From positions 32,001 through 96,000 of the forward strand of contig JAZRKN010000011.1 of NCBI GenBank assembly GCA_045646345.1: a stretch of DNA of 64,000 nucleotides, written 5' to 3'. The notes under the pieces were generated by a model, which saw only the letters and a program-made list of their open reading frames with translations, did not search any database and was not told where the DNA came from. The stretch comes from Candidatus Scatovivens sp. GTDB taxonomy: Bacteria > Bacillota > Clostridia > TANB77 > CAG-508. Of this stretch, positions 57,922 to 63,887 are shown piece by piece. The translations under genes were made by a program, and so were the position numbers. How positions within the stretch are numbered: the first letter of the stretch is position 1; every line of letters starts with the position of its first letter.

Positions 57922-57969
57922 TGGTGCGCCATAGAGGATTTGAACCTCCGACCATTTGATTAAGAGTCA
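57922..57969 (-). repeat. att site: displaced 48-bp 3' part of tRNA-Lys
   Basis: 47/48 identical to 63812-63859 (T at 57939 vs C at 63829); ends just past the anticodon loop. Confidence 0.95.
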
Positions 57970-58079
57970 TAAAAAGGGGATTTTTTAAAATGTTTTATTA
58001 TATCTCAAAATGTTGTAAATACTCTGTTTGATAGATTTATTTTACTTTAAAATATTTTATAAAATTATATAATATTTCC

Positions 58080-58102
58080 ACTTTCGCCACTTTTTCGCCA
58101 CT
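58080..58102 (+). repeat. Putative integrase arm-type site (left)
   Basis: actttcgccactttttcgccact, identical to 63741-63763. Confidence 0.75.
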
Positions 58103-58155
58103 CGATAATACTATAAAAATGATAATTTGTTATACGACATTGATAGAGGAGTAAT

Positions 58156-58232
58156 AAAAAAAGTTACTAGGTCAAGGCTCCAATTGCCAAGGACTAGTAA
58201 CTCTGTAGATACAGTCGACAATGTATCTACAA
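58156..58232 (-). ncRNA. Putative ~76-nt two-hairpin sRNA
   Basis: Minus-strand promoter TTGAAT (58267-62) / TGtTATAAT (58246-38); perfect 10-bp stem 58204-58231; terminator stem agttactag/ctagtaact with T7. Confidence 0.6.
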
Positions 58233-58873
58233 GAAATATTATAACATATAATTATAATAAAATTCAATATATAAGTTTTATACCTACACTATAAAAAAAG
58301 AAGTTATCTTTGTTGAGAATGATATTAAATTAATATCGTTAAAATATCGTTCAAAAAAATTAAAAGACCTAGATATTTTTTTGAAAGTAGAATGATATAT
58401 ATTAATAGAATTGATTTATATTTGTTATATACCCCTAGGTATCTTGGATATATATAAACAATGAGAATCGGTGGAGAGGGATTCAAAAAACACACAGGTT
58501 ATTATATAACCCCCGTGTGATATGTCGTAAAAAGTCGAATAAAAAACAATACTCCGAAACTATAAAAAGAATTTAACTCGAGAGAAACACGAGAAAATGT
58601 GAATAAAAAAGAATTGCAAGAAAGTTGCGTGAGAAATGCAACGAAATGCAATTCAAAAAAATATATTTTAAACAACGAGTAAAGAAAATCGCGCAAAAAA
58701 AGACACAAAAAAGAATATTCCGACACTATAAAAAGAAAATGACAAAAATTGACATATAAAAAAAGAGGAAATCTATTCCTCTTCATTTTGTTTATATTAA
58801 TAACTTGATTACTTCTTTATAAAAAAATCTAGATTTGTTGATTTTAGATAGTTTTAGAAGTAAATAATTGATT

Positions 58874-59131
58874 TTATTTAATACTTCCAATAAGTAATGG
58901 TCTAGATAAAATAGAAGTTAATTTTTTCTTTTCATTAAATGGTATTTCCCAAGTTCCACCACTTATCATATTTTTAATAAAATATTTCTTGTTTGGCTCA
59001 CCTAATTTTGAAAGTAATTTATTATAAGTGTTTTTTCTACAAGTATATATTATTAATTTACTTTCAGAATAAGAGATATTTATATTTGTTTCTTGTTCTT
59101 CATATAATGTATCATATATTTTTTCTTTCAT
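58874..59131 (-). CDS. Small hypothetical protein of the element
   Basis: RBS gagg; 85-aa ORF in line with the leftward operon (EEQETNINI...IIYT). Confidence 0.7.
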   Translation of the reverse strand: MKEKIYDTLYEEQETNINISYSESKLIIYTCRKNTYNKLLSKLGEPNKKYFIKNMISGGTWEIPFNEKKKLTSILSRPLLIGSIK

Positions 59132-59187
59132 AATTTCCTCGATTCATAATTAAAATTATTTTGGCTATTAAATTTCTTTATATAACG

Positions 59188-59351
59188 TGTAAAGAATCTT
59201 TATAGTATAAATCAATAAATGTGTTTTTACTTATAAAGAAACTTTACAGTGTATTTTTTATAATTAAACTCATTTTTGTTCAAATATAAAGGATTATTCA
59301 ATTATTACATATTTTTTATATATTATTTAGACTGTAAAGAAATTTTACAGA
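59188..59351. repeat. Three imperfect palindromic 19-mers, putative origin iterons
   Basis: tgtaaagaatctttatagt (59188), tataaagaaactttacagt (59232), tgtaaagaaattttacaga (59333). Confidence 0.6.
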
Positions 59352-59383
59352 TATAATATATATTACCATACCTAGTTGGATTT

Positions 59384-59731
59384 TTATTCGCACCATTTAG
59401 AGAGGAATTTATATTTATTTTCAGTACGAGTGAAACGACCGTTTTCAATTACTTCAATAAAACCTTTTTTAGATAATTCTTTAATAGCTTTTTGAAATGT
59501 TGGTGTTGTTGTGAATGATTTATATATTCTAAAAGGGAATGTTGTTGTTATACTTCCATTTGAATAATCTAACATATAGATATATACAACTTTGGCTATT
59601 GAACTTAAGTCTAAAAAGTTCTTATGTGTTAATTGAGAATGATAGATTTGAACTAACTTTGTATTATTAGTTGGTGTATCTACTTTGCGGTCATATTTCC
59701 AAATAGGTTTTTGATATTTTTTTCTAGACAT
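59384..59731 (-). CDS. Winged-HTH protein, putative replication initiator
   Basis: RBS aggtggtg; FLDLSSIAKVVYIYM...TFQKAIKELSKKGFIEV...NKY, the pattern of HTH_36-like phage/plasmid initiators. Confidence 0.6.
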   Translation of the reverse strand: MSRKKYQKPIWKYDRKVDTPTNNTKLVQIYHSQLTHKNFLDLSSIAKVVYIYMLDYSNGSITTTFPFRIYKSFTTTPTFQKAIKELSKKGFIEVIENGRFTRTENKYKFLSKWCE

Positions 59732-59748
59732 AAAATACACCACCTATC

Positions 59749-59777
59749 TTGCAAAAATAATAATATTGTAGTAAAAT
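59749..59777 (+). promoter_or_regulatory. Counter-transcript promoter
   Basis: TTGCAA-17bp-TAAAAT pointing against the leftward operon. Confidence 0.65.
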
Positions 59778-59782
59778 AAATT

Positions 59783-59857
59783 CATATTCTTACTGAAGAG
59801 GCGATATGTAATATTTTCTTACACTCATTACATATTCTTACCTCTTCTCTTTTTTTA
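59783..59857 (+). ncRNA. Putative antisense RNA targeting the int, ant and rep translation starts
   Basis: Own promoter; stem gaagagg..atatgtaat / attacatat..cctcttc with T tract; 59817-59850 is the reverse complement of 62558-62591 at 33/34 nt. Confidence 0.7.
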
Positions 59858-59870
59858 TTTACTAACATTT

Positions 59871-60065
59871 CTAAATCCTTTCAGCTTGAATTATTAAATT
59901 GTTTGATGATTGAGAATACACCCAATTATCAATTAGTTCTTTGTTAAAAAATAATCGATTCCCGATTCTAAAATGGGGAAGTTGTTTCATTCTTACTAAT
60001 TTTCTTATACTTGAAATACTACAATGTAAATATTCAGATAATTCTTTAACATTAAATATTTGCAT
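59871..60065 (-). CDS. Excisionase-like HTH_17 protein
   Basis: FNVKELSEYLHCSISSIRKLVRMKQLPHFRIGNRLFF...IDNW. Confidence 0.85.
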   Translation of the reverse strand: MQIFNVKELSEYLHCSISSIRKLVRMKQLPHFRIGNRLFFNKELIDNWVYSQSSNNLIIQAERI

Positions 60066-60444
60066 TTATAACACCCTCTTCAATTAATTTTTTCTTAAAG
60101 TATTCATAACCTTTTAAAGTGATTTTTGTTTGTATTAATTCTCTGTTGTCATCTTTTGCATAATCAACTTTTAAATAAAAGAGTCCAATTCCTTTATTAG
60201 TAGAATATTGAGGGTGACAACGAATCTTTTTAACTGTTTTGGTTAAGTATATATAATTGTTTTCTAATAGATAAGTTTTAAAGTCTTGAAGTTTTATTCC
60301 TAATAAATTCGCACAGTCTCTAAAACTCATTGAAGTTCTTTCAAGTGATTCAATATCATTAAAATTTTTTTCTTTTGTATTTTTCTCCAGTAAATTATTA
60401 GCGATTACTAACGCTCTTGATAAAATTTCTTTTTCATTTTCCAT
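60052..60444 (-). CDS. Phage antirepressor KilA-C domain protein
   Basis: ILSRALVIAN...MSFRDCANLLG...YLLENNYI...GLFYLK...QTKITLKGYEYF. Confidence 0.8.
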   Translation of the reverse strand: MENEKEILSRALVIANNLLEKNTKEKNFNDIESLERTSMSFRDCANLLGIKLQDFKTYLLENNYIYLTKTVKKIRCHPQYSTNKGIGLFYLKVDYAKDDNRELIQTKITLKGYEYFKKKLIEEGVINANI

Positions 60445-60458
60445 ATTCTTACCTCTTC

Positions 60459-60635
60459 TTAATTTGATTTTTTTGATAATTCTGAAATTATTTTTAAGAC
60501 TTTTTCTTTTTCTTCTTCTGATAGTTTTTTTCTTAACTTCCTAGAGAAAGAAGTATCGGTTATACCAAGTTTTTCAGCTACTTGATATTTTTTTACGTGA
60601 TTACTTATACACGCGATTGTAATTTCATCATTCAT
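60459..60635 (-). CDS. Cro-like HTH protein, 58 aa (not in the ORF track)
   Basis: RBS gaggtg; MNDEITIACISNHVKKYQVAEKLGITDTSFSRKLRKKLSEEEKEKVLKIISELSKKSN*. Confidence 0.8.
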   Translation of the reverse strand: MNDEITIACISNHVKKYQVAEKLGITDTSFSRKLRKKLSEEEKEKVLKIISELSKKSN

Positions 60636-60684
60636 AGTATTTCACCTCATTTCATAGATTATAAAACTAAATACAGATAAGTTA

Positions 60685-60713
60685 TTGACATATTACTGTA
60701 TTTAATTTATAAT
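60685..60713 (+). promoter_or_regulatory. Rightward promoter of the element
   Basis: TTGACA-17bp-TATAAT, overlapped by inverted repeat taaatacag...ctgtattta. Confidence 0.75.
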
Positions 60714-60714
60714 G

Positions 60715-60743
60715 ATTATACTATGATAACAACAATTAATCAA
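60715..60743 (-). promoter_or_regulatory. Leftward promoter of the element
   Basis: TTGATT-17bp-TATAAT on the minus strand. Confidence 0.7.
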
Positions 60744-60820
60744 CAGAGAAGAACAATAAAATTATGACAAAAATACAATGAAAATAATAAACTTTATTGT
60801 ATTTAGAAAAGGTAATGAAT

Positions 60821-62221
60821 ATGTTTATAAATGAAAATAAGCCATATCTTTTTATATCAAATAATTTAGAAGTGTTTAATAATGATATGTTTGATATAAA
60901 ACAACAAATTGAATTGGTTGGAATTAATAAGAATAAAACTAAAGAATTAGGAACAATATGCGTTAAATTTTTAAATTTCTATGATGAACTAATTTTTATT
61001 TTAAATAGATGTGTTGAACTAACAGAAAAACCTTTTATAAGAATAGAAATGTTTTTACAGAAAAAAATAAATCTAGATAATAAGGAACTTATAGAACTTC
61101 TTTATAGAGAATTACATCAATATCATTCAAGAATATTAAATGAAATAATAAAATCTTCTGATGATTTAAAAATGTATGAAAAATGGTTAGTAGAATTAAA
61201 AAATGCATTAATTAATGATGAGTGTTACGAAACATATTACAATGAACAAATCAACGAAATACAACAATCTTTATTAAACAATAAAAAAATATATGAATCT
61301 GAAAAAATGGAAGAAGAGATAGATAAAGAATATTTAGAAGAATTAGAAAAACAGATAAAAGATGAAGAAAATTATTTAGAAGACTTTAAAAAAGTAAAAG
61401 AAGATAACAAAACAAGTAAAGATAGTATAAAAAATGAAATTAAAGATATAGAAAATAATATAGTAGAAGAAAAGAAAAAAATTAAAAAAACTGAAGAGGC
61501 TGATTTATTATTGAAAAAATATATTGAAAAAATGATAAATGATATTACAAATTATAAAAACTTTTTTGACTCTTCTTGTGGTTTTATGGATAAAAAAAAT
61601 TATAATGAAATTGATATAGATTATTTTGTGAAAATGTTTTCGAGTAAATTGATATTACCACAGACATATATTTATAAAGTATACGAAGAATATAATTTTA
61701 TTACACCAATTGATAGATTTATCTTTAATACAATTAAAAATAAATCAAAAAAAGATTTAAAAAGAAATACTCTAGAAGACTTGAAAAAAACACCAATAAC
61801 ATTAGCAAGAATTTTTGAAATAAATTCAGTGAAAGAAATTTTAGACATTTCTTTGAGTTTATTTGTTGAAAATAAATTTACTATAAAAAAATGCAAAAAT
61901 TGTGGGAAATATTTTATTCCTCATAATAAACAGGTATATTGTGATAATCAAAGTCCACAAAATCCAAATAAAACGTGTAAAAATCTTACAGATGATTTGA
62001 GAGATAACAAGAATCCAATATATGAAGTATATAGAAATAACTATAAAACTCAAAGCAATAAAAAAAGAAGAAATAAACATATTAAAACAATAGAAAACAA
62101 ATTCAATGAGTGGAATAAACGTGCAAGAGAAGAAATGGAAAAGTGTATATTAGGTGAAATGACTTTAGATGAATATAAACAATGGCATAAGAATAATCAA
62201 GACTGGATTAAAAAATTTTAA
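60821..62221 (+). CDS. DUF6076-like protein: coiled-coil middle and C-terminal Cys4 zinc finger
   Basis: RBS aaggt before ATG 60821; IKKCKNCGKYFIP...YCD..SPQNPNKTCK. Confidence 0.65.
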   Translation: MFINENKPYLFISNNLEVFNNDMFDIKQQIELVGINKNKTKELGTICVKFLNFYDELIFILNRCVELTEKPFIRIEMFLQKKINLDNKELIELLYRELHQYHSRILNEIIKSSDDLKMYEKWLVELKNALINDECYETYYNEQINEIQQSLLNNKKIYESEKMEEEIDKEYLEELEKQIKDEENYLEDFKKVKEDNKTSKDSIKNEIKDIENNIVEEKKKIKKTEEADLLLKKYIEKMINDITNYKNFFDSSCGFMDKKNYNEIDIDYFVKMFSSKLILPQTYIYKVYEEYNFITPIDRFIFNTIKNKSKKDLKRNTLEDLKKTPITLARIFEINSVKEILDISLSLFVENKFTIKKCKNCGKYFIPHNKQVYCDNQSPQNPNKTCKNLTDDLRDNKNPIYEVYRNNYKTQSNKKRRNKHIKTIENKFNEWNKRAREEMEKCILGEMTLDEYKQWHKNNQDWIKKF

Positions 62222-62240
62222 TATGAAAGGTGGTGAAAAT

Positions 62241-62396
62241 ATGGAAAATTCTACTGATATAATAAAAAAATGCTCAACAAAATATGGTTTTGCAGAAAAC
62301 GTTATTAATATTATGATGTATATTTCAAAACAAGCTGGATATAAGGAAGAAGAATTTGAAGATTTATTACAGAGCTATCTTGCGACAAAAAAATAG
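62241..62396 (+). CDS. Small hypothetical protein (51 aa)
   Basis: RBS aaggtggtg before ATG 62241. Confidence 0.6.
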   Translation: MENSTDIIKKCSTKYGFAENVINIMMYISKQAGYKEEEFEDLLQSYLATKK

Positions 62397-62410
62397 AAAG
62401 GAGATAAAAA

Positions 62411-62539
62411 ATGAAAGAAATTGATGAAAGATACAGAATATCAACAGAGGAAATTAATGAATATTTTAATGGGAGAAGAGAAACTACATATGAAGAATTT
62501 TATGCGTTTCTAGAATGGAGAGAAAATAAGAAAAAATAA
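62411..62539 (+). CDS. Small hypothetical protein (42 aa, not in the ORF track)
   Basis: RBS aaggag; MKEIDERYRISTEEINEYFNGRRETTYEEFYAFLEWRENKKK*. Confidence 0.55.
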   Translation: MKEIDERYRISTEEINEYFNGRRETTYEEFYAFLEWRENKKK

Positions 62540-62579
62540 GAGTGTAAGTAAGAATATAGAGAAGAGGTAAGAATATATA

Positions 62580-63707
62580 ATGAGTGTAAGAGAAATAGAA
62601 AGGAATAAGAAATACAAAATTGAAGTTGTAATTGGTTACAATGGAAATAAGAAGATAAGACATACAGAAGTGTTTTATGGTGGAAAAAAAGAGGCAACAT
62701 TAAGAGAAAACGAAATTAAAATAAGTAAGAAGAACAATAGTTATATAAGTAAAACAAAAATGACATTTAAGAATTTAATTGAAAAATGGTTGGAAAGTCA
62801 AAAAAATGTATGGTCACCGATAACATACAAATCAAATTCAATTTTGAGTAAAGTTGTAATTGATTATATTGGTCACATACCAGTTCAAAATTTAAATTCC
62901 GAAGTGTTAGAATCTTTTTATAATTCTTTAAGAAAAGATACAAATTATTCAGAGAATACTATACAACATTATTACACATTGATTAATTCTGTTTTAAATA
63001 AAGGTGTTGTATGGAATTATTTGATGAATAACCCAAATAAAAGAATTGAAAAACCAAAGTTTATTAAAAAAAGAATAGAATGTTATTCGCCTGAAGAGGT
63101 AGAAAAATTAATTGAAGTTTTAAATAATGAATCCCTAAAATATCAAGCTATTATAATGTTGACTTTAGATAGTGGCGCTAGAAGAGGAGAAATAACAGGT
63201 CTAACCTGGGAAGATATAAACCTTGAAGAAAAGACATTGTTTATAAATAAAAGTACACAATATGTAAAAGAAAAAGGAATATTTGAAAAAACACCAAAGA
63301 ATCAAACAAGTATAAGAAAGATTTATATTTCAGATTCAACAGTCGAGATACTGAAGAAATATAAAAAAGAACAATTAGAAAAGCGAATTAAGTTAGGGAA
63401 TAAATGGGGAAATAGTAAAAGAGTATTTACAACAGAAATGGGAAATGATATGCACCCAGATACACCAACAAAGATATTAGAAAAGATAATAAAAAGATAC
63501 AATTTAAAGAGGATTACTTTTCACGGATTAAGACATACATCAATATCATTACAAATAAGTAGAGGAATACAAGTTCAGATTATTAGTAAAAGAGCTGGTC
63601 ACTCTAATGTAACAGTAACACATAACACATATTCACATTTCTTTGAAGATGAATTTAAGGAAGTAGCTAATGTGATGAATGATATATTAAAAGTAAAAGC
63701 TAATTAA
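62580..63707 (+). CDS. int: Tyrosine integrase with N-terminal arm-binding domain
   Basis: SGARRGEITGLTW (R), KTPK (K), FHGLRHT (HxxR), RAGHS...TYSH (H, Y). Confidence 0.95.
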   Translation: MSVREIERNKKYKIEVVIGYNGNKKIRHTEVFYGGKKEATLRENEIKISKKNNSYISKTKMTFKNLIEKWLESQKNVWSPITYKSNSILSKVVIDYIGHIPVQNLNSEVLESFYNSLRKDTNYSENTIQHYYTLINSVLNKGVVWNYLMNNPNKRIEKPKFIKKRIECYSPEEVEKLIEVLNNESLKYQAIIMLTLDSGARRGEITGLTWEDINLEEKTLFINKSTQYVKEKGIFEKTPKNQTSIRKIYISDSTVEILKKYKKEQLEKRIKLGNKWGNSKRVFTTEMGNDMHPDTPTKILEKIIKRYNLKRITFHGLRHTSISLQISRGIQVQIISKRAGHSNVTVTHNTYSHFFEDEFKEVANVMNDILKVKAN

Positions 63708-63710
63708 AAC

Positions 63711-63740
63711 AAAAAGAAGAGGTTTTGTACCTCTTTTTTT
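63711..63740 (+). terminator. Integrase terminator
   Basis: aagagg-ttttgta-cctctt followed by a T run. Confidence 0.7.
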
Positions 63741-63763
63741 ACTTTCGCCACTTTTTCGCCACT
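63741..63763 (+). repeat. Putative integrase arm-type site (right)
   Basis: Identical to 58080-58102. Confidence 0.75.
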
Positions 63764-63811
63764 TTTCTTATAAAATAAAAAAATACCAAGTCACAAAATA
63801 CTTGATACTAC

Positions 63812-63887
63812 TGGTGCGCCATAGAGGACTTGAACCTCCGACCATTTGATTAAGAGTCAACTGCTCTACCAACTGAGCTAATGGCGC
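63812..63887 (-). tRNA. tRNA-Lys, anticodon CTT, encoded CCA
   Basis: GCGCCAT TA GCTC AGTTGGTA GAGC A GTTGA CTCTTAA TCAAA TGGTC GGAGG TTCAAGT CCTCT ATGGCGC ACCA, 76 nt cloverleaf. Confidence 0.97.

Follow-up and report, generated by a model that had tools for sequence, protein, structure and literature searches.

A small integrated element occupies positions 57922-63887 of the 64,000-nucleotide stretch of Candidatus Scatovivens sp. DNA analysed here (contig JAZRKN010000011.1; hereafter the window), where it sits at a tRNA-Lys(CTT) gene that adjoins ftsH. The unit is bounded by a 48-nt direct repeat with one mismatch and a spacing of 5,890, the left attachment (att) copy (57922-57969) being a duplicated 3' part of the tRNA gene and the second copy (63812-63859) lying within the tRNA gene itself (63812-63887, minus strand). 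Just inside the two ends we found a further pair of repeats (58075-58102 and 63736-63763), likely the arm-type sites of the integrase. From left to right the minus strand carries the gene ORF85, a gene for a winged-helix protein (wHTH) and a divergent operon with xis (AlpA-like HTH_17, phrog_66; 59871-60065), kilAC (encoding an ANT (KilAC) antirepressor-type protein; 60052-60444) and cro (encoding a Cro-like HTH protein; 60459-60635), and the plus strand carries a DUF6076 gene, two micro-ORFs of 51 and 42 aa (62241-62539) and int (encoding a tyrosine integrase of 375 aa; 62580-63707).

All open reading frames (ORFs) of the element are present and open, with Pfam matches for xis (HTH_17, E 2.6e-9), ANT/KilAC (5.7e-7), DUF6076 (1.9e-14) and the integrase (4e-24), a weak family match for cro and none or very weak ones for the micro-ORFs. 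The GC content is 23.9%, against 27.7% genome-wide. An earlier note, made from the letters alone, had described this anatomy (att copies differing at one base, tRNA-Lys(CTT), the order and intactness of the ORFs), and it is real: repeats, tRNA and open ORFs were all recovered. Its statement that packaging and conjugation genes are missing held as well, the scan of ten window ORFs against Pfam and PHROGs showing no packaging, conjugation or HTH repressor family.

Relatives and free circles

The ORF85 profile matched 99 of the 401 genomes of the taxonomic family; 24 places scored E<1e-30, which corresponds to about 6% of the genomes sampled. The wHTH profile matched 696 representative clusters at E<=0.001. 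We mapped 63 non-duplicate loci, made up of the best ORF85 hits and 20 weaker ones; the strong hits lay nearly all within small elements and the weak hits were mostly lone chromosomal genes. The shared core reads int - repressor, divergent from cro (or a 55-aa ORF) - xis - wHTH - ORF85, with int sometimes at the opposite end, and was found att-bounded at Lys, Pro, Met, Leu and Thr tRNAs and also at an Arg tRNA. The 16 loci with att repeats overlapping a tRNA, among which we counted L066 (without int), L063 (without ORF85) and L057 (with another gene order and an uncertain att), measured 5.1-11.5 kb with a median of 6.2 kb. In Pfam, the 57 cargo ORFs of 23 loci matched toxin-antitoxin, restriction-modification, LysM and antirepressor families, and none matched a relaxase, a capsid protein or the large terminase subunit (TerL); the ORF calling in relatives may miss small genes, the gene for the small terminase subunit (TerS) of L079 being absent from the initial calls.

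Of 75 genomes of the genus, 50 gave a match for tRNA-Lys(CTT), and among the 30 loci examined an integrase like that of the window stood beside it only in this genome and in G660 (98% identical). As to the gene-order search at tRNA-Lys proposed in the earlier note, G660 has its element beside tRNA-Lys, and the core was found at other tRNA types as well. The nearest integrases are all found inside elements of 5-11 kb. IMG/VR scans with int and wHTH yielded no copy of the element.

A close variant, about 97% identical to the element in the window, assembles as a free circle. Run X1 yielded a contig of 5,726 nt that reads through att, is circularly permuted relative to the element and overlaps itself by 30 nt at its ends, and in runs X2 and X3 a joint across att leads from 8311 back to 2422 (5890 backwards) at a depth of 8 versus 1-2 in the flanks. 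In runs X8 and X12 int runs into the tRNA, which is the integrated form, and runs X4-X6 gave pieces only. Two variable cargo slots differ between circle and window: 75 letters replace 58109-58477 (the approximate extent of the slot that holds a small RNA), and 342 letters replace 62244-62544 (the micro-ORF slot, kept in run X8). G660 likewise lacks the first slot; from its length at this place about 76 letters are expected, so that the circle likely carries the G660 form. As the contigs derive from the variant, they show the existence of a circle and not its packaging; the attP circle for which the earlier note suggested looking was thereby found, though in a variant and not in this exact copy.

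The same small core at many tRNAs, the intact ORFs and the circles show that the element is an intact member of a satellite-like family of uncultured Clostridia and not a deletion remnant. Where larger prophage homologues without excision had been named as the finding that would speak against a satellite, we observed relatives of 5-11 kb and circles of a close variant.

Several loci depart from the common plan. L066 (4051-10546) is an att-bounded 6.5-kb derivative that has no integrase, keeps wHTH and ORF85 and carries a 493-aa reverse transcriptase and a 970-aa helicase, possibly as defence cargo. In L129, L130, L135 and L093 unannotated ORFs of 450-650 aa (possibly primase/helicase) stand after ORF85 and replace wHTH, and these elements may link the family to classical phage-inducible chromosomal islands (PICIs). 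A second type in the same genus (L034, L035 and L039) reads int - DUF6076 (or cI), divergent from xis - Phage_rep_org_N - IstB/DnaC-like ATPase, again with DUF6076 in the repressor slot and in some cases with mobilisation-like or restriction-modification cargo. L032 (genome G084), an element that measures 10.8 kb and sits at tRNA-Thr, has a related integrase, a DUF6291 rep-like gene and a strong hit to the cos-like motif described below, and with no wHTH or ORF85 match.

A cos-like signal and candidate helper phages

Alignment of the window with G660 revealed a conserved block (58429-58517, plus strand) consisting of a C-run, about 30 nt, a G-rich core (58465-58484) and a conserved tail, which resembles a cohesive-end (cos) packaging signal and may function as one. 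A degenerate pattern built from both copies had one match in the window and none in 100 shuffles, as follows from its construction, and matched 14 IMG/VR contigs. In 13 of these the match lies just upstream of terminase genes or modules; the remaining one is unrelated. Twelve matches start about 110 nt before the gene in the TerS position and about 440-500 nt before the TerL gene, and the thirteenth is flanked by an HNH gene on one side and, on the other, by a methylase/ParB gene that is followed by a TerS-position gene. PHROGs confirmed TerL and HNH for the proteins submitted, the TerS-position gene being phrog_1066, which is unnamed. The earlier note had spoken of a cos/oriT-like site, and these terminase-adjacent copies bear out its cos part and not oriT.

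Five of the matched phages are complete (34.8-39.3 kb, one of them a provirus), and one matched phage has a switch of the CI/Cro type together with a DnaB helicase and an initiator made up of HTH_36+DnaB_2. At E<=0.01 none of the five complete phages contains wHTH or ORF85. The TerL of the matched phages was found in 4 of the 75 same-genus genomes (E<=1e-40), in two of them at 64-88% identity; in these two it belongs to prophages at three places, one prophage having the motif before terS. With the TerL of Bacillus phage B13 it shares 50% identity; a 14-nt 3' overhang of B13 has been mapped by PhageTerm and restriction, as given in PMC9610010. The sequence after the B13 overhang resembles that of the window, with 27 of 58 positions matching ungapped, and over the same 58 positions the matches to the window number 37 for L289/L290 and 48 for the G660 element. 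B13 and other HK97-like 3'-cos phages represent the helper type, with an HNH - cos - terS - terL layout and a similar cohesive-end sequence. At this TerL identity B13 serves as a reference only, and the likely helpers, judged by sequence, are uncultured temperate phages of 35-39 kb from the same Clostridia, HK97-like and of the 3'-cos type.

Because the pattern was originally built from the window and G660, the non-circular evidence lies in eight other elements. A profile made from the phage copies alone hit 10 of 73 scanned loci (1.16 Mb), all of them such elements: the window, G660 and eight others (L116, L032, L090, L074, L112, L117, L122 and, at E 0.03, L060). The best reversed decoy scored E 0.55, in the genome of the window the motif occurs at this site only, and a second profile round added L080. 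Elements whose integrases belong to distant clades have kept the motif, in either orientation and at varied positions. L079 has a Terminase_2 gene (E 8e-29) after ORF85 and L060 a broken terS; motif conservation and TerS in the same region together argue for repeated selection for phage packaging.

The cos-like block is followed by an A-rich repeat region (58518-58790) that is kept in G660 and in the circle and ends in a terminator-like hairpin (58762-58784), possibly a cosB-like terminase-binding region. Exact cos-core and cos-tail patterns had no matches in IMG/VR, the non-coding left arm, compared with cultured phages by blastn, returned AT-rich noise only, and blastn of the element against the five candidate helpers gave nothing but short low-complexity matches, the cos match not being among them. 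L085 and L086 carry, some 400 nt past ORF85, a different C-run motif with the spacing of the cos-like site, missed by the profile and possibly the cos of another helper group. TerS-like ORFs of no named family follow ORF85 in L041 (9339-9689), L064 (11130-11511) and L088 (7925-8311); they comprise matches to phrog_2412 and a small HTH protein, and phrog_2412 also matches the N-terminus of the phage TerS-position protein in L292.

Replication, repression and antisense RNA

The 115-aa winged-helix protein (59384-59731, minus strand) has matches below cut-off (HTH_36, E 4e-4; PHROG DnaD-like/initiator, 5e-7) and is the counterpart of the N-terminal domain of phage initiators; it is likely an origin-binding initiator without their DnaB_2 domain. 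A family-conserved motif (59360-59372) comes directly after its stop codon, followed by four palindromic repeats (59165-59350) of which the first has three further copies, compared with a shuffle mean of 0.37 and a maximum of 2. These iterons flank an AT-rich tract, and the whole (59165-59372) is a likely replication origin. In most relatives the wHTH stop is followed by a conserved short motif and a single repeat, then by some 95 nt of AT-rich sequence, and finally by as many as three further repeats; the repeat sequence is clade-specific and the 1+3 layout constant. In a survey of 27 loci (9 without anchor, 2 mis-anchored) the 16 correctly anchored ones had 1-4 further repeat copies against shuffle means of 0.2-0.5. 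The same layout, iteron sets around an AT-rich region after rep, is described for PICI origins in PMC6092414.

Neither the window ORFs nor the 57 cargo ORFs of relatives encode a primase, a helicase or a full initiator, bar one DUF6291 rep-like cargo ORF. The winged-helix protein may thus bind the origin and borrow helicase, loader and primase. The earlier claim that the element relies wholly on helper functions went too far, since int, xis and a likely initiator with its cognate origin are its own. ORF85 (58874-59131, minus strand), a conserved core gene with a weak phrog_1709-like match, is, by its position only, a candidate for the recruitment of helicase, loader and primase. Its model (pLDDT 91) suggested no function by structure (best Z 5.7; MotA C-terminal domain Z 4.2), had no viral match at E<=0.001 and gave Atlas matches to hypothetical clusters only. 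Lone chromosomal homologues of about 83 aa, without integrase and at varied loci, occur in about 75 of the 401 family genomes (e.g. G000:C4:6543-6773 and L094-L111) and are possibly domesticated or host versions.

In the repressor slot lies the DUF6076 protein (60821-62221, plus strand), with a coiled coil, four invariant cysteines and a helical C-terminus. Two overlapping promoter-like sites face each other before it (60685-60743; plus-strand site 60685-60713 with a perfect consensus, minus-strand site 60743-60715), and a similar layout was found in 8 other DUF6076 elements; as a class, promoter consensus sites are here not above chance (50 vs 50.9). In a tree of 25 integrases DUF6076 occupied 7 rows and cI-cluster repressors 15, with six changes between the two, at least five of them forced by supported branches; sister pairs such as L074/L112 and L085/L086 differ in this respect. 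The cI-cluster protein takes the repressor slot in these 15 relatives, with HTH_3 in the four scanned. The position of DUF6076 and its swaps with HTH_3 repressors between sisters make a protein repressor likely: DUF6076 likely replaces the HTH repressor as master repressor. The absence of CI genes stated earlier is in this sense likely wrong. A full-length search with the DUF6076 model (pLDDT 73) returned coiled-coil matches only, and no papers on DUF6076 were found in the literature.

Between xis and wHTH a predicted antisense RNA gene (59749-59860, plus strand) comprises a promoter-like site (59749-59777), a hairpin of about 75 nt and a U-tail, with a fold z of -6.0. When 24 loci were screened in this interval, 11 showed convincing RNAs with a reverse promoter, hairpins and a U-tail. 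Ten aligned RNAs share two helices in which 8 of 17 pairs are doubly changed, and the covariation score beats all 500 shuffles and all slid controls, with the caveat that kinship can inflate it and that the ten RNAs were picked for their resemblance. In the window and L040 the RNA is a variant whose promoter and tails are the same and whose upper stem is changed. Judged by these alignments, the antisense RNA upstream of the wHTH gene is structurally conserved in the family; Rfam gave no match at E<=1 over the window RNA, nor at gathering score in three relatives.

In the window the segment 59814-59855 is 90% complementary to the start region of int (62553-62594), the start codon of int being covered by the loop of the RNA. 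In a comparison of 1,649 start regions int ranked first in predicted pairing (-53.8) and kilAC second (-33.2), against a mean of -14.8 (sd 4.3). The int target region is kept in G660 and in the circle up to the edge of the variable slot, and complementarity to int and the antirepressor gene is limited to the sub-clade of the window. A 15-nt antisense pattern had 107 hits in IMG/VR and 0 of 80 checked loci encode an element protein, so that these are chance matches. L061, L060, L079, L087, L088 and L122 have an ORF of 46-65 aa, overlapping the antisense RNA, whose end falls at the start of wHTH and which resembles a leader peptide for translational coupling; the window has a 12-codon ORF only.

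The small RNA (sRNA) of the left arm (58140-58267, minus strand; fold z -5.1), with a promoter-like site and two hairpins, is accessory and is a captured piece of a phage-type MuF-C large-protein gene: its homologues lie inside ORFs of more than 1000 aa, directly after the MuF_C domain, and it is absent from G660 and the circle, the two closest relatives. No convincing target was found in the host genome. Of the earlier suggestion that the element is regulated largely by RNA, what stands is the one conserved antisense RNA; the left sRNA is accessory and pairing with int and kilAC is found in the sub-clade only. In L314 (G352), L315 (G268), L318 and L320 a promoter-like site and a two-hairpin antisense RNA lie within the MuF-C coding sequence, possibly as an in-gene RNA antitoxin or attenuator; the copy in the satellite is a captured one.

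A probable miniature satellite and its alternatives

An intact island, a signal otherwise found in front of packaging genes and a free circle of a close variant together point to a small phage parasite, and we think it quite probable that the element is an intact, tRNA-integrated, miniature cos-type phage satellite; the minimal clostridial satellite of the earlier note is in line with the small att-bounded family, the circular contigs and the cos-like site. DUF6076 would silence the integrated element, which upon induction would excise as a circle and replicate from its own iteron origin via the winged-helix initiator with a borrowed helicase and primase. The helper terminase would then cut the cos-like site and the DNA would be packaged in helper capsids, probably as multimers, about six 5.9-kb units filling one head. 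The antisense RNA upstream of the initiator gene would likely exert plasmid-type copy control throughout the family, and in the sub-clade of the window it may also block translation of int and the antirepressor gene.

A number of observations weigh against this reading. The window and G660 match the cos pattern by construction, and several phage hits are near-copies of each other. The window's copy scores E 6.5e-5 versus 4.6e-13 for G660 and abuts an inserted cassette, and from the low score and the adjoining cassette this copy may be weakened. The motif occurs in only 5 of the 16 att-bounded loci and an annotated TerS in one, the remaining loci having no identified packaging signal, and no gene of the TerL family was found in the window's own genome (96.7% complete). 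The circles are assembled contigs from one study, with identical depths in X2 and X3 (which may be one data set) and an unrecorded library type; they belong to the variant, and a circle by itself is no proof of packaging. DUF6076 has no HTH, so far as it binds DNA this would be by other means, the match of wHTH to initiators stays under the Pfam cut-off with no primase, helicase or loader encoded, and linkage by itself would lead one to expect the correlation between repeats and protein (rho 0.62 with n=18, two of these rows being mis-anchored). Long complementarity to int was found in 1 of the 29 loci with an integrase and may reflect a duplicated ribosome-binding region.

Some of these points would suit an integrative mini-replicon of small-plasmid type, with antisense copy control and a vestigial cos, that spreads only by generalised transduction, vesicles or transformation. 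Its copy-control-like RNA upstream of a Rep-like gene with iterons, circles exceeding their flanks in depth, the lack of both motif and TerS in most att-bounded loci and the divergent cos of the window would fit; we nevertheless consider it unlikely, the motif being kept in both orientations and at varied positions across distant integrase clades, with TerS or a broken TerS in the same region of other elements. Less likely still is an island without a relaxase that some conjugative element mobilises in trans, the repeats after wHTH then being oriT and wHTH an auxiliary relaxosome protein: the small size, int/xis, neighbouring element types in these hosts that look like integrative mobilisable elements (IMEs), and a cross-clade motif directly after the wHTH stop that could be a nick site are compatible with it, but no relaxase or conjugation family turned up in the window ORFs or the 57 cargo ORFs (no oriT library was searched), the phage-type genes (ANT, Cro, TerS) and the cos-like site point elsewhere, and the nearest profiles of wHTH are phage initiators. 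A decayed remnant of a larger prophage that retained att ends, early genes and cos would explain an order of Cro, ANT and xis with cos that is typical of prophages, and decay does occur, as in the broken terS of L060 and the int-less L066. The same small core at many tRNAs order-wide, the closest integrases being all in 5-11 kb elements, the intact ORFs and arm sites, the circles and the five candidate helpers without wHTH or ORF85 largely refute this explanation already, and we regard it as very improbable.

Taken as a miniature cos-type satellite, the element resembles the cos-type PICIs SaPIbov5 and EcCICFT073 as described in PMC6092414 and PMC5052747: int and repressor (here a putative one) on one side and xis divergent from them, a replication gene with an origin of two iteron sets around an AT-rich tract, a helper cos in cis instead of TerS, and cargo both in the stretch from repressor to int and at the opposite end. 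With those islands it shares an integrase with a specific att, xis in a divergent operon, an origin of the PICI type (in sequence) and, as the PICI definition requires, no structural or lysis genes among the scanned ORFs. Where PICIs have TerS or cos, sequence and phage context point to cos, the window itself having no TerS, and the divergent module has its layout with DUF6076 in place of an HTH protein. Unlike cos-type PICIs (about 14 kb, about one third of the helper), it measures 5.9 kb, about one sixth of the 34.8-39.3 kb phages, has no primase-replicase module and no Ccm or other capsid-size or morphogenesis gene, and places an antisense RNA before the initiator. Of the five core components of SatelliteFinder, as listed in PMC10085698, the window has two, at most three.

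The PICMIs (phage-inducible chromosomal minimalist islands) of Vibrionaceae, in the account of PMC10803314, likewise have a minimal gene set without capsid remodelling, an HTH_17/AlpA-type gene (PF12728 in the PICMI model) beside int, and an expected packaging of concatemers, but need a primase, integrate at fis, have random concatemer ends with no cos found, and depend on a virulent helper. The element has instead a tRNA site (tRNA-Lys beside ftsH, with relatives in Clostridia), a cos-like site and a repressor slot, and no DUF3987/DUF5906 primase. No relaxase, the mark of an IME, was found in the window ORFs or the cargo ORFs of relatives. Its antisense RNA is like the c4 and sar RNAs of P1/P7 and P22 in PMC12197685, which are also about 75 nt and pair with the ribosome-binding region of an ANT-domain antirepressor gene; unlike these, it has no Rfam match, and the target predicted most strongly for it is the integrase start, at a distance of 2.7 kb.

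In plasmids controlled by a counter-transcribed RNA, the copy-control RNA is antisense to the leader of a rep-like gene, at the same position as here. Overall the element works like a cos-type PICI at the size of a PICMI, and since it lacks defining traits of both (no primase-replicase, no fis site) it is filed in neither.

The word undescribed in the earlier note agrees with our searches: no description of this family was found in the literature, including that on TANB77/CAG-508 prophages and satellites, with a listing in some supplementary table being possible. A family without primase-replicase, TerS and capsid genes would escape satellite surveys, which rely on these genes. More tentatively, and as a joint proposal that we rate at below even chances, the elements may form a distinct, widespread class of about 6 kb in gut Clostridia, with winged-helix-only replication through a borrowed replisome, swapping between cos in cis and TerS, a novel type of repressor in DUF6076 and, for this clade, one 75-nt RNA restraining initiator, integrase and antirepressor. 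The findings would extend cos piracy to elements one sixth the size of their helper, give DUF6076 and phrog_1709 the first functional context we found for them, and provide a testable satellite-helper pair, for which a sequence signal has been named, together with genomes of candidate helpers and the junction of the circle. Through the toxin-antitoxin, restriction-modification and reverse-transcriptase cargo of its members, the family may move defence genes among gut Clostridia.

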